Shown here piece by piece: positions 753-41,481 of a stretch of DNA of 41,481 nt (positions are counted from its first letter, which is position 1; each line of letters begins with the position of its first letter). The stretch lies in IMG/VR virus record IMGVR_UViG_2519103024_000007, one strand, 5' to 3'. The stretch is from a virus (Duplodnaviria > Heunggongvirae > Uroviricota > Caudoviricetes). The notes below the pieces were generated by a model. The model had not been told where the DNA came from. It did not search any database and saw nothing but the letters and a program-made list of their open reading frames with translations. The position numbers were made by a program, and so were the translations under genes.

Positions 753-1766
753 TTACTCTACTGTGGACACTGTGTGGACACTCTCGGCCTCAGTACCACC
801 TCTTAGCGGATTAAGAGAAATGGCGTCCTGAAGGTACTCTGGCGCAAAATGAGCGTAAACCATAGTTTGCTCAATCCGCGTGTGACCTAGTATCCGTTGT
901 AGCGTGATAATACTTCCTCCATTAATCATGAAATGAGTGGCAAAGCTGTGCCTTAGTGCATGTGTGGCTTGCCCCATTGGCAAATCCGGTTTTATTGCTT
1001 TCATTGTTCGTCTGAAGCGAGGGTAATCAGCATCAGGGAATAAAAAACCTCGTTTGTTATCCGCGATCATTTTGGCAACAGCCTCTGAAATCGGGACGGT
1101 GCGTGGTTTGTTTGTTTTCGTTTTAACAAACGTGACGCGGTTATGGATGATATTTTCTGCTTTCAAACGAGCTGCTTCTCCCCAACGTGCTCCTGTACTC
1201 AGGCAAAGAATCGCAATCTTTTTATTGTCGCCGTCAAGTGCTGCAAGCAGTAAGGCAATTTCTTCCTGTGTGAGATAGCCTGTTTCTGGTTTTTCCTCCT
1301 TAAGCCTCTTTGTCCCTCTGATAGGGTGCTCACCAAAGAATAACTCCGCTTCAATCAGGGCTGTAAACATGCCGCTAATACATGTTAAATCACGATTGAT
1401 ACTCGAAGGTTTAATACCCTGGCTTCTTCGGGTGGCGCAGTACTGGCTGATAAGGGATTTCGTGATTTGAAATGCGCATGGGTCATTCGTTATTTTTGTG
1501 AAGATTTCAATTTTTCCAAGATTAGATTTCCCATGCTCTTCGTGTTTACCCTTTAAATCCCACCAGATCTGTGTCAGTTCCGACAGACGTCGTTTGTCTG
1601 TTGGTTTTGATAGCCATTCTTTATTGTGGTGGTTGTACAACGTGTATTTTTCGAAAGCGACAGCTTCGCTTTTCTTATCAAACTTCCTACGGATGCGTTT
1701 TCCGTTACGTCCAGTAGGGCGGATGTCCACTTCATATCGACCATCATCGAGTTTTTTGATTGCCAT
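753..1766 (-). CDS. int: P2-family tyrosine integrase
   Basis: 337 aa; C-terminal HxLRHSFAT...LGH...Y catalytic signature; adjacent to att core; same length as P2 Int as I recall it. Confidence 0.9.
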   Translation of the reverse strand: MAIKKLDDGRYEVDIRPTGRNGKRIRRKFDKKSEAVAFEKYTLYNHHNKEWLSKPTDKRRLSELTQIWWDLKGKHEEHGKSNLGKIEIFTKITNDPCAFQITKSLISQYCATRRSQGIKPSSINRDLTCISGMFTALIEAELFFGEHPIRGTKRLKEEKPETGYLTQEEIALLLAALDGDNKKIAILCLSTGARWGEAARLKAENIIHNRVTFVKTKTNKPRTVPISEAVAKMIADNKRGFLFPDADYPRFRRTMKAIKPDLPMGQATHALRHSFATHFMINGGSIITLQRILGHTRIEQTMVYAHFAPEYLQDAISLNPLRGGTEAESVHTVSTVE

Positions 1767-4063: not shown

Positions 4064-4335
4064 GTATTCGTATTGAAATTGGCGAACGTTATGTCGTTAC
4101 CAGTGACAGCTTTCAGTTTATTCTCCACGAGAAAAAGAGAGCGGAAAGCGGTAAAAACGCCGGTCAGGAATGGCTGGCGGTGGTTGGTTATTACCCGAAA
4201 TTAAGCCAGCTCGTTTCCGGCCTGATGCATCACGATATTCTGACCGGAAGCGCAAAGTCTTTTGCTGATTTAAACGCGCAGGTTGAGCAACTCAGCAAGC
4301 GTTGTTCAGAGGCTTTTGGCTCATATGGCCGTTAA
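4060..4335 (+). CDS. hypothetical early protein
   Basis: 91-aa ORF immediately upstream of and overlapping A. Confidence 0.5.
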   Translation: MSIRIEIGERYVVTSDSFQFILHEKKRAESGKNAGQEWLAVVGYYPKLSQLVSGLMHHDILTGSAKSFADLNAQVEQLSKRCSEAFGSYGR

Positions 4336-6839: not shown

Positions 6840-9052
6840 CTAAGCGGTAACGTTTTCCTCTTCTAGTTCGTCCATCATTTTTAAATAATGCATTTCGTCA
6901 CCAGTAGCTGAAAATATTGTTCTCAATTGTTTTAGGTATTTATCTGGGTCTATGTCGCCCATATCAGTAATATTTACCGCATCAGAGTGAGAACCTCTGT
7001 TAATGTATCTGTAGAATGCTTTGAAATCACTGTTGCTATCGTCGCGTGCCAACTTTGTTAATTCATCTTGTAGAGCATCTGTTCTATGAACAAATGCAAA
7101 ATAATATTCTAGTATGTTTCTCATAATATTCGGTATTATGATTTTGTTTGCTTTGCCATCTTTTGCATCTTTTAATATTTGCCACAAAGATTGATATTCA
7201 TTCTGTATGCTGTTTTTTGTATTTCAGTAATTATACTAAAATCATTTTTCGTTACTCTACCTAGATAATAGTTTTTCTTAAATAGTTTGTCTTCTCTGCT
7301 TTTAGGAGATAGCTTAATAAGTTCATGAAAGAAATAAAGATTGTGAGTAAGGATTAATACCTTCTTTGTTAATTCATTTTTTATAATGTGGTGATGAATA
7401 ATTGATGCGATGTCGTAGACATAGTTTTGCGATAGACTAGATATTGGATCGTCAATAACAATAAAAATATCCCTGCTATCGGTATCATTTTTATCGGTTT
7501 TACCTTTACAGCACTCTAAAAAATAAAGAAACGTTATTAGTGTTTTTTCACCTTCGCTAAGAGATCTATAAACATTTTGGTTTTTTGTATGCCCTGGTCG
7601 AGATATAATGTACATATCTTTTCTTTCTGCATGTTTTTCAATACAAAAACCAGAGATCCCTAGATTTTTTAAATGGGTGTTTATTGAGTCTATCGTAGAA
7701 TCAATGTTAGATATTTTATCTCGCAATGCTTTTATTGTGAGATTATTTTCTTTTCCTTGTTGCTCAATATTATTTAATTCATCATGAACTTTCTTTTTGA
7801 TATCAAAGAATTTTTCTTTGTGTTTGGATAAATTCTCTAAATCATCGCTGCAAAAAGCATGGAGAGCCCCCCAAACTTGTTTTCCGATTTTATTCTCATA
7901 CTCTTTGAGTTTTTTAACCTTATCATTTATGTCTCTTATTTTCTTGTTAACAGCGCCTATGCTTTCCTGAACATGATTTTCTAGTTCTTTATCAATTTCT
8001 AATGTAACGCATGTTGATGGATTGTTGATCTTATCAATAATGTTTATTAAATTTTTTCTGCAATGTTTTGCAATATTTTAATATTGGAAATAATGTTCTC
8101 TTTATCTTTCTCATTGATTAGTGCACATGATGATATATTGTTTTGTATTTCGTTAAAATGATATATGGTATTTTTCTCATAAACTGACTTTATATCTGAG
8201 AGCTGTTTTACTTTCTTTGAATAACTTTCGTCAAATATTGATTTAAGGGCATTTAAAAATTCGTGACTAATAGTTTTTTCCTGACAAAACGGACATGTAG
8301 AACCGTCTAAATAATGTTCTTTACCTTTTTTTACCCAGTCAAGATTATGAAGTTTATTAATGGTTTCTGATAAATAGCTATTGCTTGTATCTATTATAGG
8401 TGTTGCTAATGTATTTACATCATCAATTGATGGGGTATATGGATGTAAAGGAGTTATTAATGCGGTTTCATTGTTTCTATTTTCTAATAGTATAGAGTAT
8501 TCTTTTGCTATATCATTTAAATTAATAAAGGTGATTGGTGAGGATGATTTTATCATCTCAAAAAAGGTCTTTTATAGCCAACTTTACCTTTCATTAAGGT
8601 TTTTAGTACAGAGTTTCTGATTGGTTCTGTTTTTTTCCAGATCGATTCGATGTATTCATTTTCTTTTTTTCCATTTCTGCTTCTAATTTCAATAACACTC
8701 CTTTTTTTTGTCTATATTGCTCTGTGAGTTGCTGTTTAATTGCTTCTTTTTCAATTAATTGTTTTTCAATATCTGCATTTTCTTTACTTAATGTAAAAAC
8801 ACCTTTTTGTTCCTGTGCATTATAGAAGTTATCTTCAATAAATTTAGTGTTGTAAACAAGAGGTTTGTAATTGTCAAGAAGGGTACATTCACACTCGTTA
8901 TAATCTGTGTGTGTAGAGTCGTAGAAATAATTTGAAATGGTAGATTTGCCACAACCATTTTGGCCGTATAGTATGTTTACTCTTTTTTCAAGATTCAGTA
9001 TTGTGAAGGCGTCTTTCTTATAACTGGTAACATTTTTTAATCTAAGTTCCAT
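6840..9052 (-). CDS. AAA_13-like ABC-type ATPase, reading frame broken in three places (pseudogene or assembly indels)
   Basis: Four collinear minus-strand ORF pieces (9052-8603, 8556-8047, open frame 8077-7172, 7223-6840). Walker A GQNGCGKST, CPFC motif in a K/E-rich coiled-coil insert, ABC signature LSEGEK, Walker B IFIVIDD, H-loop LTHN. Region is strongly AT-rich. Confidence 0.6.
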
Positions 9053-21227: not shown

Positions 21228-23957
21228 ATGAGCACGAAATTTAAAACCGTTATCACTACTGCCGGAGCCGCAAAGCTGGCAGCCGCCACTGTCCCCGGCG
21301 GGAAAAAAGTAACCCTGTCTGCAATGGCCGTGGGTGACGGTAATGGCAAATTGCCGGTGCCGGATGCCGGTCAGACGAAACTGGTGCATGAGGTCTGGCG
21401 TCACGCTCTGAATAAAGTCAGCGTGGATAACAAGAATAAAAACTATATCGTGGCTGAACTGGTTGTACCGCCCGAAGTGGGCGGCTTCTGGATGCGTGAG
21501 CTTGGTCTGTATGACGATGCCGGAACACTGATTGCGGTATCCAACATGGCTGAAAGCTATAAGCCAGAACTGGCTGAAGGCTCCGGGCGTGCGCAGACCT
21601 GCCGCATGGTTATTATTGTCAGTAACGTGGCGTCCGTTGAGCTGAGTATTGATGCCAGCACAGTGATGGCGACGCAGGATTACGTCGATGACAAAATCGC
21701 AGAGCATGAGCAGTCCCGCCGCCATCCTGACGCCACGCTGACAGAAAAAGGTTTTACTCAGTTAAGCAGTGCAACAAACAGCACCAGTGAGTCATTGGCA
21801 GCAACGCCAAAAGCGGTCAAGGCAGCAAATGACAACGCAAATTCACGTCTGGCGAAAAATCAGAATGGTGCAGATATCCAGGATAAATCAGCTTTTCTGG
21901 ACAATGTTGGCGTTACCAGCCTGACGTTTATGAAAAACAATGGCGAAATGCCGGTTGATGCTGATCTGAATACGTTTGGTTCTGTTAAGGCTTATTCAGG
22001 TATCTGGTCTAAAGCAACGTCCACCAACGCAACACTGGAGAAAAACTTCCCTGAAGATAATGCTGTCGGTGTGCTTGAGGTTTTTACTGGCGGCAATTTT
22101 GCAGGCACGCAACGCTATACCACACGTGACGGAAATTTGTATATCCGCAAACTCATTGGAACATGGAATGGTAATGATGGACCATGGGGAGCATGGCGCC
22201 ATGTTCAGGCTGTAACGCGAGCTCTAAGTACGACCATTGACCTTAACTCTCTCGGTGGCGCAGAACATTTAGGTCTATGGAGAAACAGCAGTTCAGCAAT
22301 AGCTTCTTTTGAACGACATTACCCCGAGCAGGGAGGAGACGCGCAGGGCATTCTGGAAATTTTCGAAGGTGGGCTATATGGACGCACACAGCGTTATACA
22401 ACCCGTAACGGGACTATGTATATTCGCGGCCTGACAGCCAAATGGGATGCAGAAAATCCACAGTGGGAAGACTGGATCCAAATTGGTTATCAGACCAGTA
22501 GTACCTTCTATGAGGATGACCTGGATGATTTGATGTCTCCAGGTATTTACAGTGTGACAGGCAAAGCGACCCACACCCCAATCCAGGGGCAGTCTGGTTT
22601 TCTGGAAGTCATCAGGCGCAAGGATGGTGTCTATGTTTTGCAACGTTACACGACCACAGGAACCAGCGCAGCTACAAAAGACCGTTTATATGAGCGAGTG
22701 TTTCTTGGTGGCTCATTTAACGCGTGGGGGGAGTGGCGACAGATTTATAACTCAAACTCTTTGCCGTTAGAGTTGGGTATCGGTGGCGCAGTGGCAAAAC
22801 TCACCAGCCTGGACTGGCAGACATACGATTTTGTGCCGGGCAGTCTGATAACCGTTCGGCTGGATAACATGACCAATATTCCCGACGGTATGGACTGGGG
22901 CGTCATTGATGGCAACCTGATAAACATCTCAGTCGGTCCGAGTGATGATTCTGGTTCGGGACGCTCAATGCATGTATGGCGCAGCACTGTAAGTAAAGCC
23001 AACTACCGCTTTTTTATGGTGCGTATTTCAGGAAATCCGGGAAGCCGCACGATCACGACAAGACGTGTGCCAATTATCGACGAAGCCCAGACATGGGGCG
23101 CGAAACAGACATTCAGTGCTGGCCTTTCTGGTGAACTGTCCGGCAATGCGGCGACAGCAACAAAGCTGAAAACAGCCCGTAAAATTAATAACGTTTCGTT
23201 TGATGGAACATCAGATATTAACCTGACGCCGAAAAATATTGGTGCATTTGCTTCAGGAAAAACAGGAGACACCGTTGCGAATGATAAAGCCGTTGGATGG
23301 AACTGGAGTAGCGGAGCCTATAACGCAACTATTGGTGGGGCATCAACGTTAATTCTTCATTTTAATATCGGGGAAGGAAGTTGTCCCGCCGCCCAGTTTC
23401 GCGTTAATTATAAGAACGGTGGTATTTTTTATCGTTCTGCTCGTGACGGTTACGGATTCGAGGCTGACTGGTCTGAGTTTTATACCACAACGCGAAAACC
23501 TACAGCGGGAGATGTCGGTGCACTGCCGTTATCTGGTGGTCAATTGAATGGTGCTCTGGGTATAGGAACATCCAGTGCTCTTGGCGGTAATTCGATTGTT
23601 TTGGGTGATAATGACACGGGCTTTAAACAAAATGGTGATGGTAATCTGGATGTTTATGCTAATAGCGTCCATGTTATGCGCTTTGTCTCCGGAAGCGTTC
23701 AAAGTAATAAAACCATAAATATTACGGGGCGTGTTAATCCCTCGGATTACGGTAACTTTGATTCCCGCTATGTGAGAGATGTCAGACTTGGCACACGTGT
23801 TGTCCAGACCATGCAGAAAGGGGTGATGTATGAGAAAGCAGGGCACGTAATTACCGGGCTTGGTATTGTCGGTGAAGTCGATGGTGATGACCCCGCAGTA
23901 TTCAGACCAATACAAAAATACATCAATGGCACATGGTATAACGTCGCACAGGTGTAA
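21228..23957 (+). CDS. H: tail fiber protein with extended variable C-terminal region
   Basis: 909 aa; conserved P2-type N-terminus (MSTKFKTVITTAGAAKLAAA), then three tandem ~55-aa repeats and a distinct distal domain; longer than the 669 aa I recall for P2 gpH. Confidence 0.9.
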   Translation: MSTKFKTVITTAGAAKLAAATVPGGKKVTLSAMAVGDGNGKLPVPDAGQTKLVHEVWRHALNKVSVDNKNKNYIVAELVVPPEVGGFWMRELGLYDDAGTLIAVSNMAESYKPELAEGSGRAQTCRMVIIVSNVASVELSIDASTVMATQDYVDDKIAEHEQSRRHPDATLTEKGFTQLSSATNSTSESLAATPKAVKAANDNANSRLAKNQNGADIQDKSAFLDNVGVTSLTFMKNNGEMPVDADLNTFGSVKAYSGIWSKATSTNATLEKNFPEDNAVGVLEVFTGGNFAGTQRYTTRDGNLYIRKLIGTWNGNDGPWGAWRHVQAVTRALSTTIDLNSLGGAEHLGLWRNSSSAIASFERHYPEQGGDAQGILEIFEGGLYGRTQRYTTRNGTMYIRGLTAKWDAENPQWEDWIQIGYQTSSTFYEDDLDDLMSPGIYSVTGKATHTPIQGQSGFLEVIRRKDGVYVLQRYTTTGTSAATKDRLYERVFLGGSFNAWGEWRQIYNSNSLPLELGIGGAVAKLTSLDWQTYDFVPGSLITVRLDNMTNIPDGMDWGVIDGNLINISVGPSDDSGSGRSMHVWRSTVSKANYRFFMVRISGNPGSRTITTRRVPIIDEAQTWGAKQTFSAGLSGELSGNAATATKLKTARKINNVSFDGTSDINLTPKNIGAFASGKTGDTVANDKAVGWNWSSGAYNATIGGASTLILHFNIGEGSCPAAQFRVNYKNGGIFYRSARDGYGFEADWSEFYTTTRKPTAGDVGALPLSGGQLNGALGIGTSSALGGNSIVLGDNDTGFKQNGDGNLDVYANSVHVMRFVSGSVQSNKTINITGRVNPSDYGNFDSRYVRDVRLGTRVVQTMQKGVMYEKAGHVITGLGIVGEVDGDDPAVFRPIQKYINGTWYNVAQV

Positions 23958-23960
23958 TTT

Positions 23961-24488
23961 ATGCAGCATTTAAAAAATATTACTGCGGGTAATCCAAAAA
24001 CTGTTGCCCAATATCAACTGACAAAAAATTTTGATGTTATCTGGTTATGGTCCGAAGAGGGAAAAAACTGGTATGAGGAAGTAAGTAATTTTCAGGAAGA
24101 CACGATAAAGATTGTTTACGATGAGAATAATATAATTGTCGGCATCACCAGAGATGCTTCAACGCTCAACCCTGAAGGTTTTAGCGTTGTCGAGGTTCCT
24201 GATATTACCGCCAACCGACGTGCTGATGACTCAGGTAAATGGATGTTTAAGGATGGTGCCGTGATTAAGCGGATTTATACGGCAGACGAACAGCTGCAAC
24301 TGGCGGAATTACAGAAGTCAGCTTTGCTTTCCGAAGCTGAAACTATCATTCAGCCACTGGAACGCTCTGTCAGACTGAATATGGCAACAGATGAGGAGCG
24401 TAGCCGACTGGAAGCATGGGAACGCTACAGTGTTCTGGTCAGCCGTGTGGATCCTGCAAATCCTGAATGGCCGGAAATGCCGCAATAA
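23961..24488 (+). CDS. G: tail fiber assembly chaperone
   Basis: 175 aa immediately after H. Confidence 0.85.
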
Positions 24489-24522
24489 GTTGTATGATCT
24501 CTGGAGTGAGCTAACGTATCTA

Positions 24523-24564
24523 TAGCACAGAGTAAAGCCTAATCTGACAGTCTGCTCTGTGCTA
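24523..24564. repeat. 10-bp-stem hairpin (TAGCACAGAG / CTCTGTGCTA) enclosing an inverted copy of the CAGACTGTCAG motif
   Basis: Perfect inverted repeat 24523-24532 / 24555-24564; loop contains CTGACAGTCTG (24544-24554), the reverse complement of the motif at 26199 and 28509. Confidence 0.75.
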
Positions 24565-24710
24565 GGAGCGGACTGACCTGCTTCCCGATGATTAATACAC
24601 AGCTATGCTAGTAATGTCCTAGACTGGCCCCCTGAATCTCCAGACAACCAATATCACTTATTTAAGTGATAGTCTTAATACTAGTTTTTAGACTAGTCAT
24701 TGGAGAGCAG

Positions 24711-25076
24711 ATGATTGATGTCTTAGGACCGGAGAAACGCAGACGGCGTACCACACAGGAAAAGATCGCAATTGTTCAGCAGAGCTTTGAACCAGGGATG
24801 ACGGTCTCCCTCGTTGCCCGGCAACACGGTGTGGCAGCCAGCCAGTTATTTCTCTGGCGTAAGCAATACCAGGAAGGAAGTCTTACTGCTGTCGCCGCCG
24901 GAGAACAGGTTGTTCCTGCCTCTGAACTTGCTGCCGCCATGAAGCAGATTAAAGAACTCCAGCGCCTGCTCGGCAAGAAAACGATGGAAAATGAACTCCT
25001 CAAAGAAGCCGTTGAATATGGACGGGCAAAAAAGTGGATAGCGCACGCGCCCTTATTGCCCGGGGATGGGGAGTAA
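24711..25076 (+). CDS. insC: IS2 transposase orfA (InsC-like, HTH)
   Basis: 121 aa from ATG 24711, [26 protein letters not shown]... Confidence 0.85.
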
Positions 25077-26135
25077 GCTTAGTCAGCCGTTGTCTCCGGG
25101 TGTCGCGTGCGCAGTTGCACGTCATTACGACGNNNNNNNNNNNNNNNNNNNNNNNNNNNNNNNNNNNNNNNNNNNNNNNNNNNNNNNNNNNNNNNNNNNN
25201 NNNNNNNNNNNNNNNNNNNNNNNNNNNNNNNNNNNNNNNNNNNNNNNNNNNNNNNNNNNNNNNNNNNNNNNNNNNNNNNNNNNNNNNNNNNNNNNNNNNN
25301 NNNNNNNNNNNNNNNNNNNNNNNNNNNNNNNNNNNNNNNNNNNNNNNNNNNNNNNNNNNNNNNNNNNNNNNNNNNNNNNNNNNNNNNNNNNNNNNNNNNN
25401 NNNNNNNNNNNNNNNNNNNNNNNNNNNNNNNNNNNNNNNNNNNNNNNNNNNNNNNNNNNNNNNNNNNNNNNNNNNNNNNNNNNNNNNNNNNNNNNNNNNN
25501 NNNNNNNNNNNNNNNNNNNNNNNNNNNNNNNNNNNNNNNNNNNNNNNNNNNNNNNNNNNNNNNNNNNNNNNNNNNNNNNNNNNNNNNNNNNNNNNNNNNN
25601 NNNNNNNNNNNNNNNNNNNNNNNNNNNNNNNNNNNNNNNNNNNNNNNNNNNNNNNNNNNNNNNNNNNNNNNNNNNNNNNNNNNNNNNNNNNNNNNNNNNN
25701 NNNNNNNNNNNNNNNNNNNNNNNNNNNNNNNNNNNNNNNNNNNNNNNNNNNNNNNNNNNATGCTGGGAGCGGTGGAACGCCGCTCGGCAACGAGCTTCCG
25801 GCGTCTCCAGTAGAGTGGCTGACGGATAATGGTTCATGCTACCGGGCTAATGAAACACGGCAGTTTGCCCGGATGTTGGGGCTTGAACCGAAGAGCACGG
25901 CGGTGCGGAGTCCGGAGAGTAACGGCATAGCAGAGAGCTTCGTGCGATAAAGCGTGACTACATCAGTGTCATGCCCAAACCAGACGGGTTAACGGCAGCA
26001 AAGAACCTTGCAGAGGCGTTCGAGCATTATAACGAATGGCATCCGCATAGTGCACTGGGTTATCGCTCGCCACGGGAATATCTGCGGCAGCAAGCCAGTA
26101 ATGGGTTAAGTGATAACAGGTGTCTGGAAATATAG
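25034..26135 (+). CDS. insD: IS2 transposase orfB (InsD-like, DDE), interrupted by assembly gap and an apparent small deletion
   Basis: N-terminal [23 protein letters not shown] and C-terminal ...[10 protein letters not shown] are on either side of the N run; premature stop at 25948-25950 (ESFVR*) where I recall extra bases in IS2. Confidence 0.6.
25133..25759. other. assembly gap (627 N)
   Basis: Uninterrupted run of n inside IS2. Confidence 1.
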
Positions 26136-26198
26136 GGGCAAATCCATGTCCGTAGATCGCTGTGTGTTGCATCCATCGGTTGAACTCACAGTCCAAAC

Positions 26199-26219
26199 CA
26201 GACTGTCAGCTTTGATTAG
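26199..26219 (+). repeat. recombination-site-like repeat, copy 1: CAGACTGTCAG-c-TTTGATTAG
   Basis: Shares the 11-mer core and TTTGAT(T)AG extension with 28509-28528; a second TGTCAG follows 28 nt downstream in both copies. Confidence 0.8.
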
Positions 26220-26397
26220 ATTCTACCTACTCAACCTGTCAGATAAGGTCTGAGCTAATACATCTAATATATGGCTTCGTGCAGGGGACGGCTATCGCGA
26301 ACGTTAGGCCAGGTATCTGAATACGCACAGTTCACTTGGTTGTACTTCTTGCACTGATCTGCTATCCCGCACAGCTATTTATAGGTAATCTTCAGTG

Positions 26398-26403
26398 TAT
26401 AAT
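26398..26403 (+). promoter_or_regulatory. candidate -10 hexamer TATAAT for the 280-aa gene
   Basis: TATAAT 39 nt upstream of ATG 26442; strong RBS AGGAG at 26431-26435; -35 element weak. Confidence 0.35.
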
Positions 26404-26441
26404 CTGCCAACTTATGGAAGCTTGTACAACAGGAGAAATAT

Positions 26442-27284
26442 ATGAAAAAAGAATTGTTTGGACGTTGCCCGTTTGATCTTGACGAAGATGTAAAAAAAAT
26501 AGCCGCGATAAATAAATATATCCATGCAAAATTTGAGGAGCATAAAAATAAAATAGACAACCTAAAGGGTGTGGAACAAAAATTGATGGTCTTACAGTAC
26601 TTTAATGTACTGAATGAACTTAGTAATCAGGCTATCTCTTCTTTGAATATAGGAGCCTTTTCAGCATCGGAAGTATTAGCTAGGGTTATAATAGAACAGG
26701 CTGCCAATCAATTTTATATAGCAATAGATGATGGCGAAAATGCACAAGCATTACTCAAGGCTAGTAAGAAATTAGTTCATAGTAATGGAAAACGGTGGCT
26801 GGAGTGTTTAAAATCCAAAGGAATGACTAATCCAGCAGCAAATGAAAGGATTCGCATGGGAAAAGAACTAACTGATCTATTTAATAGATTGTGGCCAAAT
26901 ACACCTGAATATCCAGGAACCAGAAGACTTTTTGAATTAATTGGCTGGGAAACACACTATCATGCCCATTACGTTCCCCTTTGTGATTCAATACATACAT
27001 TCTCTGATGATATGGTAAATATAGTATCTCTATATAATGCAATCCAAAGTGATGAAAATACTGCTATCGAATTCATTCTTGCAGTTAAACAAGAAAATAA
27101 ACGGCTGGCAATTTATAATTTTGTAATTGCTACGGCCCTTCGGTGTGAGGCCTTAGTAAATGTATTTAACTCTTTAGGTTATCAGGATATTATAACAGAA
27201 ATGACACCAACAATAGATACAGTCAACCAGACTATAATTCGATATGATGATTTTGATCATTCCAGAATTGATGATTGTCAATAA
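26442..27284 (+). CDS. hypothetical protein, 280 aa, no motif recognised (cargo gene 1)
   Basis: AT-rich ORF with strong RBS; soluble, no TM segment; no catalytic motif I can assign by eye. Confidence 0.6.
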   Translation: MKKELFGRCPFDLDEDVKKIAAINKYIHAKFEEHKNKIDNLKGVEQKLMVLQYFNVLNELSNQAISSLNIGAFSASEVLARVIIEQAANQFYIAIDDGENAQALLKASKKLVHSNGKRWLECLKSKGMTNPAANERIRMGKELTDLFNRLWPNTPEYPGTRRLFELIGWETHYHAHYVPLCDSIHTFSDDMVNIVSLYNAIQSDENTAIEFILAVKQENKRLAIYNFVIATALRCEALVNVFNSLGYQDIITEMTPTIDTVNQTIIRYDDFDHSRIDDCQ

Positions 27285-27390
27285 TTAATTGACAGAATAC
27301 GTACATGCGCAACAACTAGTGATAGTTGACTTATTTTCGCTCTTGAGAGACAACCATACTCAAATCTCCCACATTGCAGGAGATTTGAAT

Positions 27391-27975
27391 ATGAAAACGT
27401 CACCGTGGAATAAAGACCGTACCATCGGTCAAAAAAGGCCACTTCAGATATTTCATATCTGGGGGATCCGGATTAGACTTGAGTTGGAAGGTAAAACACG
27501 CGATCTAGCTCTGTTCAACATGGCTTTGGACACTAAGCTACGGGGCTGTGATTTGGTCAAACTCAAAGTATCAGATGCTGCATATGGCAGTTCTGTCTCA
27601 AGCAGAGCAACGGTGTTGCAACAGAAAACCGGCAGCCCTGTCCAATTTGAGATAACCAAAGGGACAAGGGAAGCGGTTACTGCATTGATAAAGCTCGGCA
27701 ACTGGCATAGTAAAGGCTTCCTGTTCCGCTCTCGGGTCGGAACTAACCACCATATATCAACCCGGCAATACAACCGAATTTTTCATGGGTGGGTAGAAAA
27801 GCTTGGTCTCGAAGATTCGCTGTACAGCACACATTCCATGAGAAGAACAAAACCTTACTTAATCTACAAGAAAACCAAGAGTCTCCGGGTGATCCAACTT
27901 CTGTTGGGCCATAAGAAACTGGAAAGCACAGTCCGTTATTTGGGCATTGAAGTCGATATAGAAGGTCTCTTTTAA
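27391..27975 (+). CDS. short tyrosine recombinase, catalytic domain only (FimB/FimE-like size)
   Basis: ATG 27391 with RBS AGGAG 8 nt upstream (track ORF starts at upstream TTG 27289); box I LRGCDLVKL, conserved K in QKTG, box II HSMRRT...LLGH...TVRY; about 194 aa, no N-terminal core-binding domain. Confidence 0.65.
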   Translation: MKTSPWNKDRTIGQKRPLQIFHIWGIRIRLELEGKTRDLALFNMALDTKLRGCDLVKLKVSDAAYGSSVSSRATVLQQKTGSPVQFEITKGTREAVTALIKLGNWHSKGFLFRSRVGTNHHISTRQYNRIFHGWVEKLGLEDSLYSTHSMRRTKPYLIYKKTKSLRVIQLLLGHKKLESTVRYLGIEVDIEGLF

Positions 27976-27997
27976 GTTATGGGGGCTGATTTTATAT

Positions 27998-28387
27998 TCA
28001 ATAGCGTATGCTCATCGAAGAAATAAACTCATAAAATGTAAAGACAGCCAGCAAAAACATACAGATAAAGATAAGGGAAATAGCACACTTAACTAAGGGC
28101 TGAACCCCCCGAGGTGTTCCCCATGGTTTAGACATTTGGGTTATAACCCAAATAAATAAGGCCACAAAACAGCAAACACCAGCCAATCCGAGCAGAGATA
28201 TTATGACAACTCCAAACAGATTTCCAACATCTAGTTTATCTGTTTTTGCAACTAGGGTTAACAAACCAGCAATAATAGTTGCAATCGATATTCCCGCAAT
28301 GGTTGTGAGATCGGCGATAACAGCCAGTTTTTCTTTAGTATTTCCTTGAGTAAAGACCTCTAAAATTGATTTCATGGAAATAACCAC
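27998..28387 (-). CDS. small membrane protein, three predicted TM helices (cargo gene 3)
   Basis: 129-aa ORF convergent with the recombinase gene; three long hydrophobic stretches. Confidence 0.5.
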   Translation of the reverse strand: MVISMKSILEVFTQGNTKEKLAVIADLTTIAGISIATIIAGLLTLVAKTDKLDVGNLFGVVIISLLGLAGVCCFVALFIWVITQMSKPWGTPRGVQPLVKCAISLIFICMFLLAVFTFYEFISSMSIRY

Positions 28388-28508
28388 CTACTATCGATTA
28401 TATTCAGGAGCTTTTTATCATAACGATATCAGATAGATAAGGACATTGTAATATTTTGGATGATTTAAACTTGCTTTTGTAACTCTAATGTCCACTTTTC
28501 GCTCAAAG

Positions 28509-28528
28509 CAGACTGTCAGGTTTGATAG
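28509..28528 (+). repeat. recombination-site-like repeat, copy 2: CAGACTGTCAG-g-TTTGATAG
   Basis: Direct-orientation partner of 26199-26219; followed by a second TGTCAG at 28548-28553. Confidence 0.8.
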
Positions 28529-28582
28529 CATTTGGGCTATGTAAATTGTCAGGCGGAAAATGAGTGAGTACAAATCAGGACA

Positions 28583-28609
28583 GGCGGGCGAATTGCCCGC
28601 CTTTTCTTT
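28583..28609 (+). terminator. rho-independent terminator candidate
   Basis: GGCGGGC-gaatt-GCCCGCC stem-loop followed by TTTTCTTT, about 100 nt upstream of FI. Confidence 0.5.
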
Positions 28610-28705: not shown

Positions 28706-29938
28706 ATGAGTGACTATCATCATGGCGTGCAGGTGCTGGAGATTAACGACGGCACCCGCGTCATTTCCACCGTATCCACTGCCATTGTCGGCATGGTCTG
28801 CACGGCCAGCGATGCGGATGCGGAAACCTTCCCCCTCAATAAACCGGTGCTGATTACCAATGTGCAAAGCGCAATTGCAAAGGCCGGTAAAAAAGGCACG
28901 CTGGCGGCATCGTTGCAGGCCATCGCTGACCAGTCAAAACCGGTCACCGTTGTCGTGCGCGTGGAAGACTGCACCGGTGATGACGAGGAAACGAAACTCG
29001 CGCAGACCGTTTCCAATATCATCGGCACCACCGACGAAAACGGTCAGTACACCGGACTAAAAGCCCTGCTGGCGGCGGAGTCGGTAACCGGTGTTAAACC
29101 GCGTATTCTCGGTGTGCCGGGACTGGATACCAAAGAGGTGGCTGTTGCACTGGCATCCGTCTGTCAGAAGCTGCGCGCTTTCGGATATATCAGCGCATGG
29201 GGCTGTAAGACCATTTCCGAGGTGAAAGCCTACCGCCAGAATTTCAGCCAGCGTGAGCTGATGGTCATCTGGCCGGATTTCCTCGCATGGGATACGGTCA
29301 CCAGTACCACCGCTACCGCGTATGCCACCGCCCGTGCGCTGGGTCTGCGCGCTAAAATCGACCAGGAGCAGGGCTGGCATAAAACGCTGTCCAACGTCGG
29401 GGTAAACGGTGTTACCGGCATCAGCGCATCTGTATTCTGGGATTTGCAGGAGTCCGGCACCGATGCTGACCTGCTTAACGAGTCAGGCGTCACTACGCTG
29501 ATTCGCCGCGACGGTTTCCGATTCTGGGGTAACCGTACCTGCTCTGATGACCCGCTGTTCCTCTTTGAAAACTACACCCGCACCGCGCAGGTACTGGCTG
29601 ACACGATGGCTGAGGCGCACATGTGGGCGGTGGACAAGCCCATCACCGCAACGCTGATTCGCGACATCGTTGACGGCATCAATGCCAAATTCCGTGAGCT
29701 GAAAACAAACGGCTATATCGTGGATGCGACCTGCTGGTTCAGCGAAGAATCCAACGATGCGGAAACCCTCAAGGCCGGAAAACTGTATATCGACTACGAC
29801 TATACACCGGTGCCTCCTCTTGAAAACCTGACCCTGCGCCAGCGTATTACCGATAAATACCTGGCAAATCTGGTCACCTCGGTTAACAGCAATTATAAGG
29901 AGCCTGACCGATGGCAATGCCGCGCAAACTCAAGTTAA
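28706..29938 (+). CDS. FI: tail sheath protein
   Basis: 410 aa as read; 3' end overlaps FII by 28 nt, so the true stop may differ. Confidence 0.9.
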   Translation: MSDYHHGVQVLEINDGTRVISTVSTAIVGMVCTASDADAETFPLNKPVLITNVQSAIAKAGKKGTLAASLQAIADQSKPVTVVVRVEDCTGDDEETKLAQTVSNIIGTTDENGQYTGLKALLAAESVTGVKPRILGVPGLDTKEVAVALASVCQKLRAFGYISAWGCKTISEVKAYRQNFSQRELMVIWPDFLAWDTVTSTTATAYATARALGLRAKIDQEQGWHKTLSNVGVNGVTGISASVFWDLQESGTDADLLNESGVTTLIRRDGFRFWGNRTCSDDPLFLFENYTRTAQVLADTMAEAHMWAVDKPITATLIRDIVDGINAKFRELKTNGYIVDATCWFSEESNDAETLKAGKLYIDYDYTPVPPLENLTLRQRITDKYLANLVTSVNSNYKEPDRWQCRANSS

Positions 29939-37431: not shown

Positions 37432-38646
37432 ATGACTGGAAATATTCACCAGAATTATAATGCAAGGGATGTAATTAATGCCCCGGAAGTAAAAACAGCA
37501 ATTTTGCAAAGAAGTCTGTTTCGCCAGGATAATGAGACCATCCAAAAATGGTTACTCAACCATTTTTATCGATGGCTAATTAGTGACTTTCCAATGGTGC
37601 AACAAATTAACTCGCTTGCAGAATATTCACTGTTTAATAAAAATGATGATGTAATCCCGGAATGGCTGGTATCGAAGTTTAATACTGCCTCAGTATCAAC
37701 TGCGACACTTTATTATATCGAAACCGATCATCAACAAATATTAACCAAAGAACGGGAGTTGGTGGAATTTCTTTCCAGGAAATGTGGTACCCGTCTGGAA
37801 TCAAAACTACAGCGCATAACCTGCTACGTTGCGTTCAGAATGCGTGAAGAAGAGCATGAAAAGATGCTTCAACGACGCGAGAAAGGGTGGCAGCCGAGTG
37901 AACAAAATACTGTAAAGTCAATACTTGATGTGCCAGACGGAAAAATTGTTGAGTTTGATGCCAGTCATTCGAACCTTCGTCGTGAAATGGCTTATGAATC
38001 ATGGCATATGCAACATTGCGTAGGCCAGTTTGATGATCGAAAAAATCTTACCGGTGGTTATGGTGAGTATTATGCAAATCAAATTGAGCAACATAAATTA
38101 CGGTTATTCAGTTTGCGTGATAATAATAATATTCCTCATGTTACTATTGCTCTCAATGTTGTTGGTGATTCACTTGAAATTGATCAAATAAAAGGTAAGC
38201 AAAATCGTCATCCAGTTAAAAAATATGCGGACGATGTTTTGTCTCTTTTGCAACTATTATCACCACAAGCAGTTCGACATAGTGATTGTGAAGGTATGGG
38301 TATTGTTTATGAAAATACACCTGAATATCAGGGGTGGAAATATGTAACGGAAGTATACGAAACCAGTTTTTTACTAAGCGTACTACATAATAACTTTCAT
38401 TTATTAGAACATTTTACAAATCCTTCAGTGGAGTTGCAGTGGTTACTGTTACACAGCGCACCTGATAAGTTACATTATCTTAATGCTATTGACCCTATAG
38501 TTGCTACTTCTGCGGAAATGTTATTCCCTGGCGCTGAGTGGCATCCGCAATTTGCAGGTCAAAATATCAGCAACATTTCCTTTGAGATAGAGAGTTTGAC
38601 ATTACAGACATCTCATTACTTACCCCTGTCAGAGGTTGAAAAATAA
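37432..38646 (+). CDS. hypothetical protein, 404 aa, possible PcfJ-like domain
   Basis: AT-rich ORF; the segment ESWHMQHCVGQF...LFSLRD...IDQIKGKQN resembles what I recall of the PcfJ-like domain; tentative. Confidence 0.55.
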   Translation: MTGNIHQNYNARDVINAPEVKTAILQRSLFRQDNETIQKWLLNHFYRWLISDFPMVQQINSLAEYSLFNKNDDVIPEWLVSKFNTASVSTATLYYIETDHQQILTKERELVEFLSRKCGTRLESKLQRITCYVAFRMREEEHEKMLQRREKGWQPSEQNTVKSILDVPDGKIVEFDASHSNLRREMAYESWHMQHCVGQFDDRKNLTGGYGEYYANQIEQHKLRLFSLRDNNNIPHVTIALNVVGDSLEIDQIKGKQNRHPVKKYADDVLSLLQLLSPQAVRHSDCEGMGIVYENTPEYQGWKYVTEVYETSFLLSVLHNNFHLLEHFTNPSVELQWLLLHSAPDKLHYLNAIDPIVATSAEMLFPGAEWHPQFAGQNISNISFEIESLTLQTSHYLPLSEVEK

Positions 38647-39362
38647 TGAGTCTTATCATTGTTCTCCTGGTCGCAATATTTATTTTTATCTATAGATACA
38701 AAAAAAACAAACCACAAATCGATGCTTTTATTGCTAAAGAAAAAGAAAAGGATCTAATCAAGGACAAAAGACGAGCAACAAAGAGACGTAAGTGGGCATT
38801 AGCAATTGGTGATATAGTTGCTCGTCGTAATGGACTGTCAGTAAATGGCTTCACGTTAGATTTAAAGTTGACTGATGATAAGCGTCAACAACTTGCACTA
38901 CAGGTTAAACAAGAGCTAGGAACAGAAACTTACCAAAGCAACGAAGATTTCCGTCAACAAATTGGCGTTATATTACAGCGCTGGGCTACAGGGCTTGGTA
39001 ATTCTCCACATGATTTTTACGAACAACTGGCAGCACAAGGCCAGGTTCTGGATGGGCTGGCGTTTGACTGTATGCGCACTGCTTTTTTAACTCGTTGCAT
39101 CGCCGGTTTAGGCTGGTGCGATGAAAACCAGGCCTGGATAGTGTTATTACTGAATGCTCAAAGAGCACAAGATTGTTTCGCTTCATGGGAAGATTATGCC
39201 AGTGCTTATGTTCGCGCCCGACAAAAATGGTTAATGATATACGATACCCCCGTCGCCACTGCGAACCGTGATTTAAAGGAAGTCACTGCATGGTTGAAAG
39301 ATCCATTCAGTAACTGGAAAAAATTGCCGTGGAATGAATTTAAAATTTTTGAACCTAATTAA
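38646..39362 (+). CDS. hypothetical membrane-anchored protein, 238 aa
   Basis: Start overlaps the upstream stop (TAATG); N-terminal TM helix (LIIVLLVAIFIFIY) followed by a basic stretch. Confidence 0.55.
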   Translation: MSLIIVLLVAIFIFIYRYKKNKPQIDAFIAKEKEKDLIKDKRRATKRRKWALAIGDIVARRNGLSVNGFTLDLKLTDDKRQQLALQVKQELGTETYQSNEDFRQQIGVILQRWATGLGNSPHDFYEQLAAQGQVLDGLAFDCMRTAFLTRCIAGLGWCDENQAWIVLLLNAQRAQDCFASWEDYASAYVRARQKWLMIYDTPVATANRDLKEVTAWLKDPFSNWKKLPWNEFKIFEPN

Positions 39363-39372
39363 AAGGATATCT

Positions 39373-41481
39373 ATGGAACAGGATGCTCGTTTACTCAGTG
39401 CAATGCAAAAGATGTGTGACCAAAAAATGCCACTTAATACTCTTGAGAGAAAATGGCAAATCGCAAATATTCCTTATATGTTACAAGAAAAACGTTATCA
39501 GGAACTAGATGAAATTTATAACCAGGTATTACAGGAGAGTTTCACTTCTCGTCAGGCTGAAAAGCGCTATTTTTTATCCTGGACCCAAATGTGCAACTAT
39601 TTTTATGATATGAACACGCTAGTTGATGCCGGAACAGAAGGTTTAAGACTCATTAAAACCTGGCAGCAAGCAAGACCTCATTCTACACATGCCTGGCTTG
39701 CCGAAGCACAATACTGGAATCACCGTGCATGGTTATATCGCAGTTATGGCTGGGCAAATGATACCACACATGCAATGTGGCTTTGTGCTGGTGCATGTAA
39801 TGAACAAATGGTCATCGCTACACTTAAAGCAATTGATTGTGACCCACGACAATGGATGGCTGCATTACTTACCAGCACCAACTCAAAAGTATTTGGTCAG
39901 CCAGCCTGGCTGGCGGCACACCTTAACGGTGATAGTGTCGCAGGAATACCATTAATGATCGCACTGAAAAATTATCACCGCCGCTCCCCGCAAGAAGTGG
40001 AAGCGTTGATGGCGTATTCCGGACTTTCGTTTGAGCATGCAATATGCCCCGTTTTGCCTCGCCCCAATATACTTCCTGAGTATGATGATGATGGTGGGCA
40101 AAAATATTGGCTTTCTGTTTGCCTGACTATTTTTCCTCACACTTTTTATCCTTTTGTTGAATATATACCATTTCGAATGCCACGCTGGGGAGGGTCGCAT
40201 AAAGAAATTTCCGAATTGCTGGATTCAGTAACCTGTAAGCACTTATCTACCGAAGAACATGACTATATGGATCTCTTACTTTGGTGGGATGATTACCGAG
40301 ATGTCAGCATTGAGGACATTGCGCCCGAGGAGCAACAATATGCAATCGACTTAGCAGAGAATATTGCTCAGTACGCACAATTTCAGGAATGTCGCCATAA
40401 TGCCCTAGAGTGGTTACTTGCCTGCTATAACAAGCAGAACGATCACGATAAGTTGTGGTGCTGTATACAGCGAGCGGTGATGGAAGACATGAAGCTCAAT
40501 AATTATTACACTGCGTACGCGATAAAATTTGCATTAAGTTATTATCCAGATTCATTCTGGATATATAATTTTATCTGCCAAAATTCACAGAATACAACTT
40601 ATGCTACACCTGTTATTTATAGGGGGTTTTTCCAGCGAGAGGGTATTTTGGGTTTTGAAAAAGATGAAGGGCAGGGCGATGCTTGGCTGGAAAAAACTAG
40701 TGACATTAAATACAATCATAATTGGCGGTCGGCAATAAAAGATTTGAGTTGGTTTGACCTTTCTGATTATTTCATTCCGCTTGCGACAATTGGTAAGCAA
40801 AGAAATATTCCTGCCGCATTAAATTTAGTTGCTCTTGAATATTTGGATAAGGAAGACAATACAAAATTACCTTATGAACCATCTACAGCTTTGGAGTATT
40901 TTCGACGGGCACTTAAAATACTTCAAGATGACCTAAATTTCCATAGCTCGGTATCTTATCCACTGGTAAAAAATTATGGTTATAGCGAACATCAACAAGA
41001 TCTACAAAATATTTATTTTAGCATTGCTATCTGCTACCAGGCACTAAATAAACAAGAAATTTCTAAAGAAACACGGGCTATTTATGAAAAAAATCTCCTT
41101 GACAATTTATTTCTGGCTCATGAAGCTGGACATGAAAAAGCATGGGGGCTTTTTTTACTTAATATCTTTGAGGTGAAAGAACTCTCACTTGCTCATTTGC
41201 ACCTCCAACAGGTACAAGAAGAAGCGAATAAAGGTACGCTCGAAGCAATGATTACTTTGTCGCGCCTGTATGGTAACAAAGAAGATGAAAAACTGTTTAA
41301 CATGAAACTCAGTGCGCGCTGGACACATTTTGCCGAGTCTTTATATCCAGATAACGAAATTATTGCAGATTGCCTTTATCATCTCCATTTCTCCAGCCTG
41401 TGGAAACGCTGTCGTTATGCCTGGTATACCTTTCGTATTCCAGCTAGCGAATTACCCGGCCAGGTTAACAGTATGGTGTAA
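39373..41481 (+). CDS. hypothetical large protein (about 702 aa from ATG 39373), Trp/Tyr-rich helical repeats
   Basis: ATG 39373 with AAGGA RBS just after the upstream stop (track ORF begins at an in-frame ATG 39334 inside the previous gene); stop is the last codon of the window. Confidence 0.55.
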   Translation: MEQDARLLSAMQKMCDQKMPLNTLERKWQIANIPYMLQEKRYQELDEIYNQVLQESFTSRQAEKRYFLSWTQMCNYFYDMNTLVDAGTEGLRLIKTWQQARPHSTHAWLAEAQYWNHRAWLYRSYGWANDTTHAMWLCAGACNEQMVIATLKAIDCDPRQWMAALLTSTNSKVFGQPAWLAAHLNGDSVAGIPLMIALKNYHRRSPQEVEALMAYSGLSFEHAICPVLPRPNILPEYDDDGGQKYWLSVCLTIFPHTFYPFVEYIPFRMPRWGGSHKEISELLDSVTCKHLSTEEHDYMDLLLWWDDYRDVSIEDIAPEEQQYAIDLAENIAQYAQFQECRHNALEWLLACYNKQNDHDKLWCCIQRAVMEDMKLNNYYTAYAIKFALSYYPDSFWIYNFICQNSQNTTYATPVIYRGFFQREGILGFEKDEGQGDAWLEKTSDIKYNHNWRSAIKDLSWFDLSDYFIPLATIGKQRNIPAALNLVALEYLDKEDNTKLPYEPSTALEYFRRALKILQDDLNFHSSVSYPLVKNYGYSEHQQDLQNIYFSIAICYQALNKQEISKETRAIYEKNLLDNLFLAHEAGHEKAWGLFLLNIFEVKELSLAHLHLQQVQEEANKGTLEAMITLSRLYGNKEDEKLFNMKLSARWTHFAESLYPDNEIIADCLYHLHFSSLWKRCRYAWYTFRIPASELPGQVNSMV

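Follow-up and report, generated by a model that had tools for sequence, protein, structure and literature searches.

Cassettes in the G-FI region of a P2-like prophage are bounded by two classes of 24-bp sites and are probably exchanged via a family of small tyrosine recombinases

The stretch of DNA analysed here (the window; 41,481 nucleotides, IMG/VR record IMGVR_UViG_2519103024_000007) is a P2-like prophage in which the genes, named by P2 gene order, include the integrase (753-1766, minus strand), A (4283-6616) and the tail fibre gene H (21228-23957), and in which a block of accessory genes, the cargo, lies between the assembly protein gene G (23961-24488) and the sheath gene FI (28706-29938), the identity of both being confirmed by Pfam. 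The cargo is flanked, as inverted repeats, by an outer pair of copies of an element of about 85 bp, termed E here, the inner 24 bp of which form a palindromic core site of class a or b, with a variant c. The comparison of this region with other hotspots, prophages and islands suggests that cassettes bounded by the 24-bp a and b sites are probably exchanged via a family of small tyrosine recombinases, one member of which is encoded in the window, at two mutually incompatible site types.

The inner 24 bp of each E consist of a 9-bp arm, a 6-bp centre and a second 9-bp arm, and read GTCCGCTyy-TCGCTC-AAAGCrGAC in class a and GTCCGCTyy-TGGCAC-ArAGCGGAC in class b; among the 54 distinct sites outside the P2 set, the centre is TCGCTC in 20 and TGGCAC in 14. 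These 9-6-9 sites have the layout of a tyrosine-recombinase core, that is, inverted arms around an asymmetric centre of 6-8 bp. The sites of the cargo region are the following:

24550-24573, minus strand: b core site, which reads on the plus strand as outer arm GTCTGCTCT, centre GTGCTA and inner arm GGAGCGGAC
26179-26203, plus strand: variant c core site, GTTGAACTC-ACAGTC-CAAACCAGAC, also present in loci L003, L006, L007, L016, L028, L033 and L051
27328-27351, plus strand: a-type site directly upstream of the recombinase gene, with the centre TCGCTC at 27337-27342 and the recombinase-proximal arm TTGAGAGAC
28490-28513, plus strand: a core site of the right repeat, with inner arm GTCCACTTT, centre TCGCTC and outer arm AAAGCAGAC

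The 41 P2-type G-FI hotspots retrieved from IMG/VR fall into 28 cargo classes, and in 27 of the 28 an E of type b (E_b) stands on the left and an E of type a (E_a) on the right. Identity to the consensus, measured over 27 classes, is 0.94 in the outer E of the right (a) side, 0.96 in the outer arm, 0.96 in the centre, 0.74 in the inner arm and 0.40 in the first 40 nt of cargo, and the corresponding values on the left (b) side are 0.97, 0.96, 0.95, 0.79 and 0.44. Because identity steps down at the centre yet the inner arm stays at 0.74-0.79, the backbone owns the outer arm and the centre, and every unrelated cargo supplies its own consensus-like inner arm.

The candidate enzyme is encoded between the a-type site at 27328-27351 and the right end of the cargo:

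27391-27975, plus strand: small tyrosine recombinase gene, 194 aa, catalytic domain only (PF00589, E=9.6e-18, residues 35-184)

Residues R51, K79, H148, R151, H174 and Y183, whose catalytic roles were assigned by motif position, are invariant in 26 homologues, and the family looks functional. Its members, of about 200 aa, make up at least 8000 clusters at 72-95% identity, range over Enterobacterales, Morganellaceae, Idiomarina, Pseudoalteromonas and Cycloclasticus, and are found in 794 of 5426 complete Escherichia coli genomes (about 15%). Among the relatives drawn from IMG/VR for site mapping, an a-type site precedes the recombinase gene in 12 distinct loci and a b-type site follows it in full-length copies; in these 12 loci the block conserved together with the recombinase extends from TCGCTC to GTGCCA, the arms beyond it change with the neighbouring cargo, and homologues at 75% and 58% identity (L037, L021, L072) also adjoin such sites. 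An original prediction, made from the window alone, had proposed a test of the 27391-27975 recombinase on the repeats; the family is indeed tied physically to the sites in all loci examined, and in the window copy the conserved C-terminal tail is missing. An inversion switch was considered as well and rejected, since none of the 12 loci has the recombinase reversed relative to the a and b centres.

Every cassette of cargo has a b site at one end and, inverted relative to it, an a (or c) site at the other, and its genes may stand on either strand. The array of L062 has the order b, cargo, a, 18 nt, b, cargo, a, recombinase, b, cargo, a, and the same layout is found in L060, L061, L066, L067, Nissle 1917 (L002) and Buttiauxella (L028); the segment between cassettes is a 15-18-nt linker, the recombinase gene or a whole phage genome, so that, as the site maps of the arrays show, a and b sites delimit the segments in alternation. 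The 24-bp sites of arrays are retained even though the outer sequence of E is absent there. Over 1961 bp, the cassette of the P2 hotspot L140 and the second cassette of a lambdoid array (L062-L065) share 98.9% identity; the annotated context of that array in E. coli WCHEC035148 is a DUF977 gene on one side and hokD/rem/RusA on the other. The flanks beyond the sites are unrelated: on the right side the sequence continues as TCGCTC-AAAGCAGACtgtcagatttgat in the P2 hotspot and as TCGCTC-ATAAGGGACaaccatactc in the lambdoid prophage (in short form, the switch is from TCGCTC-AAAGCAGACtgtcag in one to TCGCTC-ATAAGGGACaaccat in the other). The module of the window itself, made up of a 74-bp spacer, an internal E copy (E1), a gene for a DUF5677 protein, the a site and the recombinase, recurs in Buttiauxella (L028) with 96.6% identity, the homology to the window beginning within the b site at 24550, and in a lambdoid prophage of E2348/69 (L003) with 89%.

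Lambdoid prophages (L003, 6275-10151; L166, 4843-9944) hold the same cassette arrays between the replication genes and hokD/rem. The array of E2348/69 encodes DUF5677, a recombinase with a frameshift, and an AAA ATPase together with an HNH endonuclease; the same segment is also on record as a 'plasmid' of 8.4 kb (L004), perhaps an excised circle or an artefact of assembly.

The 24-bp sites of single-cassette hotspots are embedded in the longer repeat E, full-length copies of which lie in the window as follows:

24491-24573, minus strand: left terminal repeat E_b, with the outer end TGTATGATC at 24491, an nhmmer b-profile score of 71.4 and a length equal to that of the reverse-complemented right repeat; annotated in AJ512685, AJ512681 and AJ512676
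26179-26262, plus strand: internal full-length E1, with the outer end GAGCTAATACA at 26252-26262 and an nhmmer score of 68.1; part of the imported DUF5677-recombinase module
28490-28572, plus strand: right terminal repeat E_a, with the outer end GAGTGAGTACA at 28562-28572 and an nhmmer score of 63.4; the 'right inverted repeat' of AJ512685

An exact scan for the pattern CAAASCRGACTGTCAGNTTT with one genome per species gave 44 loci, where about 17 are expected by chance; approximately 28 of them, in Enterobacterales and Alteromonadales (the latter Neptunicella and Bowmanella), are similar over about 85 bp, and the matches outside Gammaproteobacteria within these 44 loci show no further similarity. 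The consensus of the approximately 28 loci is aTGTCCGCTtcTCGCTCAAAG-CAGACTGTCAG-ATTTGAT...CTGTCAG-aTCAAGTCTGAGCTAATACA, and the outer ends of a unit read TGTATTAGCTC...GAGCTAATACA (TGT...ACA). In most loci the E profile finds a second, inverted E 1.2-6 kb away, the inner ends of both facing the cargo, and the two ends of one E-unit differ in subtype, a versus b, variant c being found as well. E_a is present in 1807 of the 5426 complete E. coli genomes at 1-4 places each (median 1), only 2 of the 2120 E places in E. coli are on plasmids, and the contexts that were inspected are of three kinds: prophages, a satellite-like element and tRNA-linked islands. In P2-like prophages of other genera, E-units occupy further known variable positions, namely A-Q, D-ogr and the region upstream of V, and in lambdoid prophages E stands between the replication genes and hokD/rem. 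The low copy number and the mobile-element contexts show that E is not a host repeat, so that the condition named in the original prediction as refuting it, a common repeat family spread over the host genome, does not apply, and a dispersed repeat of the REP/BIME or ERIC type is ruled out by copy number. A structured RNA was likewise rejected, on the grounds that E has no match in Rfam at E<=1 and that RNAalifold predicts zero pairs on 25 E copies. The reference genome of the satellite P4 has no E or core site at E<1, so the claim made here does not reach the P4 hotspot, and that of phage P2 has the right repeat only.

The outer pair of repeats is a documented feature of the phage lineage, since three GenBank records of P2-like Z-regions (AJ512676, AJ512681 and AJ512685) annotate left (3-115) and right (about 91 bp) inverted repeats at the corresponding positions; 24491-24573 and 28490-28572 of the window align with the repeats of AJ512685. 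These Z/fun records, whose lineage is marked by inverted repeats of about 90-110 bp directly behind G and ahead of the pF promoter region of FI, show an identical outer repeat pair between G and FI, bracketing variable 'lysogenic conversion' ORFs, but, unlike the present analysis, they name no core site, enzyme, arrays or target duplication. The outer inverted repeats have thus been on record since 2004. Nilsson, Karlsson and Haggard-Ljungquist reportedly attributed the exchange of the Z/fun region to site-specific recombination in the title of a paper in Mol Biol Evol of that year. In the window, homology to the P2 backbone resumes at about 28481-28487, that is, just outside the inner end of the right repeat.

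E-units have terminal inverted repeats, target duplications and empty sites, as transposon-type elements do, and in four of them the duplication is perfect. The 7-nt flanks of the units compared, and the terminator next to the unit of the window, are as follows:

L049: left GCTAATA, right GCTAATA, 7/7
L019: left GCTAACT, right GCTAACT, 7/7
L043: left CACTATT, right CACTATT, 7/7
L033: left AATAATT, right AATAATT, 7/7
L036: left TATAATA, right TATAATT, 6/7
Window, 24484-24490, plus strand: left 7-bp flanking repeat AATAAGT, overlapping the TAA stop of gene G
Window, 28573-28579, plus strand: right 7-bp flanking repeat AATCAGG, 5/7 against AATAAGT
Window, 28583-28605, plus strand: rho-independent terminator of the V-G operon (GGCGGGC...GCCCGCC followed by a T run), which lies 2-6 nt past the G stop in element-free phages

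For the Pantoea unit (L019), 70 E. coli genomes have the two flanks joined without interruption. The unoccupied site in them, which the Pantoea unit splits, is a terminator hairpin, GAGGCTAAC-GGAT-GTTAGCCTC, between a hypothetical gene and a VbhA antitoxin gene; the terminator target of insertion reads GAGGCTAAC(T)GGATGTTAGCC. In phages P37, STYP1 and PSP3 the G-FI site is empty of E, the terminator before the FI promoter follows 2-6 nt after the G stop, and a single 7-mer (AATAAAC in STYP1) lies between the G stop and the terminator. On account of these target duplications and empty sites, the E-unit is counted as an insertion. If its ends were joined they would form GAGCTAATACA-N7-TGTATTAGCTC, an 11-7-11 palindrome with the classical tyrosine-recombinase layout, although the TGT...ACA ends and the target duplication would fit a DDE transposase equally well. 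No transposase is present among the cargo ORFs examined, a systematic search for an autonomous copy being outside the scope of the analysis. As a further observation, E-units insert within or beside rho-independent terminators (L019, 1560-1600 and 7830-7870; L169, 260-300), and the P2 unit lies 2-6 nt upstream of the pre-FI terminator.

The exchange proposed here would proceed in two steps. The recombinase family of about 200 aa, acting in cis or in trans, would catalyse a x a and b x b exchange within the 6-bp centres, and one integration with a subsequent resolution (a x a first and b x b second, or in the opposite order), involving two molecules, would lead to the swap or addition of a cassette; such paired exchange would build arrays and hold the orientation of a cassette fixed relative to the backbone. 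Exchange of this kind would account for the arrays, the constant orientation, the drop in conservation at the centre and the cassettes common to unrelated elements. From the sequence comparisons we infer that the recombinase is the catalyst, that the crossover takes place within the centre, as the breaks of conservation and of homology there would suggest indirectly, and that a sites do not recombine with b sites, the two site types being read as incompatible because their centres match at only 4 of 6 positions. The insertion of an E-unit installed the landing pad between G and FI in P2-like phages, and elsewhere in other elements. In the window, the pad contains the imported module (spacer, E1, DUF5677, a site, recombinase), to which a later deletion joined the remnant of a second cassette, and an unrelated IS2.

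These repeats had been approached in the original prediction through the 11-mer CAGACTGTCAG, three copies of which, one inverted and two direct, were described as delimiting the G-FI cargo. An exact search places them at 24544-24554 (minus strand), 26199-26209 and 28509-28519 (both plus strand), in agreement with that description, but the motif is not confined to the cargo interval as had been stated, since a fourth exact copy, missed earlier, lies at 5987-5997 (plus strand) within the replication gene A. The excess over chance holds: with at most one mismatch there are 4 matches in the window where 0.44 are expected, and 4 was reached in 0 of 100 shuffles. The shared architecture of the direct copies is also borne out, each core being followed by one base, TTTGAT(T)AG and a second TGTCAG, with the starts of the two TGTCAG 33 nt apart both times (26204 to 26237 and 28514 to 28547). 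The inverted copy is preceded by CTAAT and sits, as had been noticed, in the 22-nt loop of a perfect 10-bp hairpin (TAGCACAGAG at 24523-24532 and CTCTGTGCTA at 24555-24564), the fold of which has a z-score of -2.5 over 24523-24564; its stem is the GGCACAGAG / CTCTGTGCC inverted repeat typical of b-type ends, which varies in other b-type ends by mismatches, without compensatory changes.

All three copies in the cargo region are parts of E, and they represent three site classes, namely b (24550-24573), variant c (26179-26203) and a (28490-28513). The 11-mer, which is the best conserved part of E, is made up of the last 5 nt of the outer arm (CAGAC) and the 6 adjoining nt (TGTCAG), and TGTCAG follows the arm directly in only 26 of the 54 distinct sites. 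The outer two copies belong to the conserved backbone of the P2 lineage, the third lying about 25 nt downstream of the point at which backbone homology resumes, and the middle copy alone arrived with the recombinase module. The suggestion that the copies are recombinase target sites is therefore retained in part: they do belong to one family of sites that delimits the G-FI cargo and shows comparative signs of site-specific recombination, but the 11-mer itself is not the core and its copies are not equivalent. The copy in gene A (context TTGTCAGACTGTCAGGG) has flanks that do not fit the E profile (E=6) and, as they lack any E-like similarity, is probably a coincidence; by our own estimate, one additional exact 11-mer over 83 kb (two strands) has p~0.02. 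It lies about 190 bp upstream of GCGCCTCGGAGTCCTGTCAA (6177-6196), which we take to resemble the P2 origin nick site.

Several observations weigh against the exchange of cassettes by this recombinase family at a and b sites. The breakpoints lie in the segment most conserved between lineages, TCGCTCAAAGCAGACTGTCAGATTTGAT, and for this reason short-homology recombination could yield similar breakpoints. The approximately 60 bp of outer E and the 6-7-bp target duplication are left unexplained by the a and b sites, and the arms that adjoin the recombinase gene are degenerate. Most P2-like hotspots are without a recombinase (1807 E. coli genomes have E_a, against 794 with the recombinase), so action in trans must be assumed. 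The recombinase of the window has neither the conserved 11-residue tail nor a downstream b site: from residue 189 onwards its C-terminal tail has given way to other sequence (the window copy ends in IEGLF, the consensus of the family in DALEISESIEV) and, since a deletion at 27957 took the last 11 codons together with the downstream b site, this copy may be impaired or inactive. In addition, the catalytic domain has only about 35 residues in front of it and Pfam gives no further domain that could serve as a core-binding domain, a trait that does not exclude activity because FimB and FimE share it; no sequence relative of the recombinase was found in the PDB, and the AlphaFold2 model built from 26 close homologues reached a pLDDT of 43, too low for use.

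Part of these observations would be accommodated if the E repeats were mere conserved flanks, the cargo being swapped by general or phage-encoded homologous recombination in approximately 28 near-identical base pairs and the recombinase being a passenger. The stretch of E with the highest conservation is also where the breakpoints fall, the recombinase gene is absent from most hotspots, and homologous recombination is among the possible routes considered in a 2026 survey of P2 and P4 elements (PMC13586616); this explanation is nevertheless unlikely, as it leaves unexplained the mirror-image consensus inner arms (the 9-6-9 palindrome) of unrelated cargos, the array sites of 24 bp that have no outer E sequence, and the constant position of the recombinase between an a centre and a b centre. 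The last of these features, together with the mirrored inner arms, is equally unexplained if the units bounded by E are taken as non-autonomous transposons of the DDE type (mobile insertion cassettes or MITE-like elements), which a transposase encoded elsewhere would move as a whole, with the 24-bp palindromes as its inner binding sites. Terminal inverted repeats of 85 bp, TGT...ACA ends, subterminal repeats, 6-7-bp target duplications and clean empty sites all speak for such transposons; however, the cargo examined has no transposase, the 6-7-bp duplication also fits the overlap of a tyrosine recombinase, whose layout the joined ends would adopt as an 11-7-11 palindrome, and the outer repeats of the P2 lineage stay P2-specific while cargo and inner arms change. 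Because of this last point most of the turnover would not be whole-unit transposition, and the DDE explanation is judged quite unlikely.

It is highly improbable that the sites act as folded single strands, with an a site and the adjoining inverted b site pairing into an imperfect attC-like hairpin with a mismatched centre. In arrays a(+) and b(-), 15-18 nt apart, do form an imperfect palindrome with mismatches in the centre (TCGCTC versus TGGCAC, 4 of 6 identical), but what stands between a and b in single-cassette hotspots is the cargo or an entire phage genome, every 24-bp site forms a full palindrome by itself, no consensus fold emerges from the E alignment with RNAalifold, and the recombinase scores 18 bits against an integron-integrase cut-off of 435. 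Finally, the hairpin directly after gene G and the terminators that E-units adjoin could be taken to mean that the repeats are regulatory or insulating elements (terminators, or operators shielding the late operons from cargo transcription) unrelated to mobility; this is scarcely credible in view of the target duplications and empty sites, which mark the unit as an insertion, and of the arrays and the cassettes shared between elements, which show mobility, and the repeats have neither a match in Rfam nor a conserved RNA fold. Exchange at a and b sites via the recombinase family is the reading retained in what follows.

The proposed system resembles several known ones in part. As in integrons, there is a tyrosine recombinase, there are cassette arrays split by imperfect palindromic sites, and unrelated cargos, often defence-like, carry their own copy of the site; the differences are that the recombinase reaches only 18.3 bits with NF011946 (cut-off 435) and 18.2 bits with TIGR02249 (cut-off 265), that the attC boxes RYYYAAC / GTTRRRY are absent from the a/b site consensus, that a/b cassettes have two different sites, one per end, and genes in either orientation, apparently with their own promoters, that the recombinase gene is itself part of the array, with an a site on one side and a b site on the other, and that its product, of about 200 aa, is without integron-specific features. 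The pdif modules of Acinetobacter plasmids are bounded by short inverted XerC/XerD sites of 11-6-11 layout, alternate in polarity along arrays and are common to different replicons. The a/b cassettes share with them the short inverted sites, the alternating polarity and the occurrence of modules on different replicons or elements, but travel with a dedicated recombinase family, and their hosts are prophages and islands, not plasmids. To our knowledge the arms GTCCGCTyy / AAAGCrGAC are unlike the XerC/XerD arms of dif, and the recombinase scores 43 bits as XerC (cut-off 335) and 26 bits as XerD (cut-off 330). In engineered cassette exchange with heterospecific lox or FRT sites, the cassette is also held between two inverted incompatible sites; because the flanking sites are inverted and mutually incompatible, the cassette would be exchangeable but not self-excising, and the a/b system differs in being natural, its incompatibility being deduced from the 4/6 match of the centres. 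FimB and FimE are likewise of about 200 aa, consist of the catalytic domain only and act at short inverted sites; however, the recombinase reaches 22.9 bits with NF007371 (cut-off 222), no inversion was seen, and the a centre lies upstream and the b centre downstream of the recombinase in one orientation in the 12 loci. Mobile insertion cassettes and MITE-like elements share with E-units the long terminal inverted repeats, the target duplication, the passenger genes and the lack of a transposase, whereas E-units have, in addition, internal 9-6-9 sites as putative exchange points and an associated tyrosine recombinase.

The cargo of the window runs in the order G stop and left 7-mer, E_b, 74-bp spacer with IS2, E1, DUF5677, a site, recombinase, joint, cassette remnant, E_a, right 7-mer, terminator and FI, and its remaining features are the following:

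24620-26146, plus strand: IS2 (IS3 family), outside the system, in the 74-bp spacer between E_b and E1; N-masked at 25133-25760
26442-27284, plus strand: gene for a DUF5677 protein, a cargo gene (PF18928, E=8e-10)
27355-27393, plus strand: hairpin in the 5'-UTR of the recombinase gene (-17.4 kcal/mol, z=-5.0), which sequesters the Shine-Dalgarno sequence and the start codon
27957-27958, no strand assigned: illegitimate joint, where homology to the recombinase module stops and homology to a cassette intact in L133 and L126 starts
27998-28376, minus strand: gene for a small predicted membrane protein, remnant of the second cassette, in a block 96.5% identical in L133 and L126

The IS2 has a 5-bp duplication, TGTCC, at 24615-24619 and 26147-26151, and the form free of it, b(-), 74 bp and then a(+), is seen in L055-L058 (otherwise identical IMG/VR copies), L073 and L028. 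The deletion at 27957 fused the recombinase to the interior of another cassette, and the region 26148-28520, truncated recombinase included, occurs in 36 E. coli genomes. The DUF5677 protein has no match in PADLOC or NCBIfam, the small membrane protein has no Pfam family, and PADLOC gave no match for the three cargo proteins; a known defence system was rejected on this basis, the only NCBIfam matches being sub-threshold ones of the recombinase to Xer, integron and invertase families. The leader hairpin suggests tight translational control of the recombinase, like that of many transposase genes. A leader hairpin is also found before the recombinase of L062 (7962-8003; -23.5 kcal/mol, z=-5.8; stems of 10-15 bp), and the Bowmanella homologue keeps the leader stem with different bases.

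Outside the G-FI region, a second P2 variable region between A and Q (6840-9052, minus strand) has an AAA_13 (PF13166) ATPase gene in at least 4 ORFs, apparently a pseudogene; there is no E or core site in the A-Q region of the window, and Kosakonia (L033) has an E-unit at that position. Past the prophage and a peptidase U32 gene, 37432-41481 holds PcfJ-like, DUF1266 and DUF4034 genes, and may be another accessory island.

It is well established that P2-like phages and their relatives have hotspots of accessory and anti-phage genes. In a survey of 2026 that covered thousands of P2 and P4 elements, almost no transposable elements were found in the hotspots, and the route of exchange between P2/P4 and other elements was described as unknown, with homologous or illegitimate recombination as guesses (PMC13586616). 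Relative to the GenBank records, the present analysis adds the 24-bp site classes, the link to the recombinase, the arrays, the target duplication, the empty sites, the sharing of cassettes with a lambdoid prophage and the other P2 positions (A/Q, D/ogr and upstream of V); the searchable literature yielded no description of the 24-bp sites, the arrays or the recombinase family, the motif strings matching only unrelated primers. It is conceivable, with the case for and the case against in balance, that these elements make up an undescribed, integron-independent platform for cassette exchange in Gammaproteobacteria, composed of a highly conserved, catalytic-only tyrosine recombinase of about 200 aa, two or three incompatible 24-bp sites and a carrier unit with ends of about 85 bp placed beside terminators, and that this is a mechanism by which defence and accessory cassettes are shuttled among P2-like and lambdoid phages, satellite-like elements and islands. 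The anatomy described offers a specific and testable answer to the question of how the cargo moves, in the form of 24-bp sites, a candidate enzyme and one cassette common to a P2-type and a lambdoid prophage. If this answer is true, the boundaries of cassettes could be called to the base pair, the cargo could be catalogued by site scanning, and a compact natural system of cassette exchange would be at hand.

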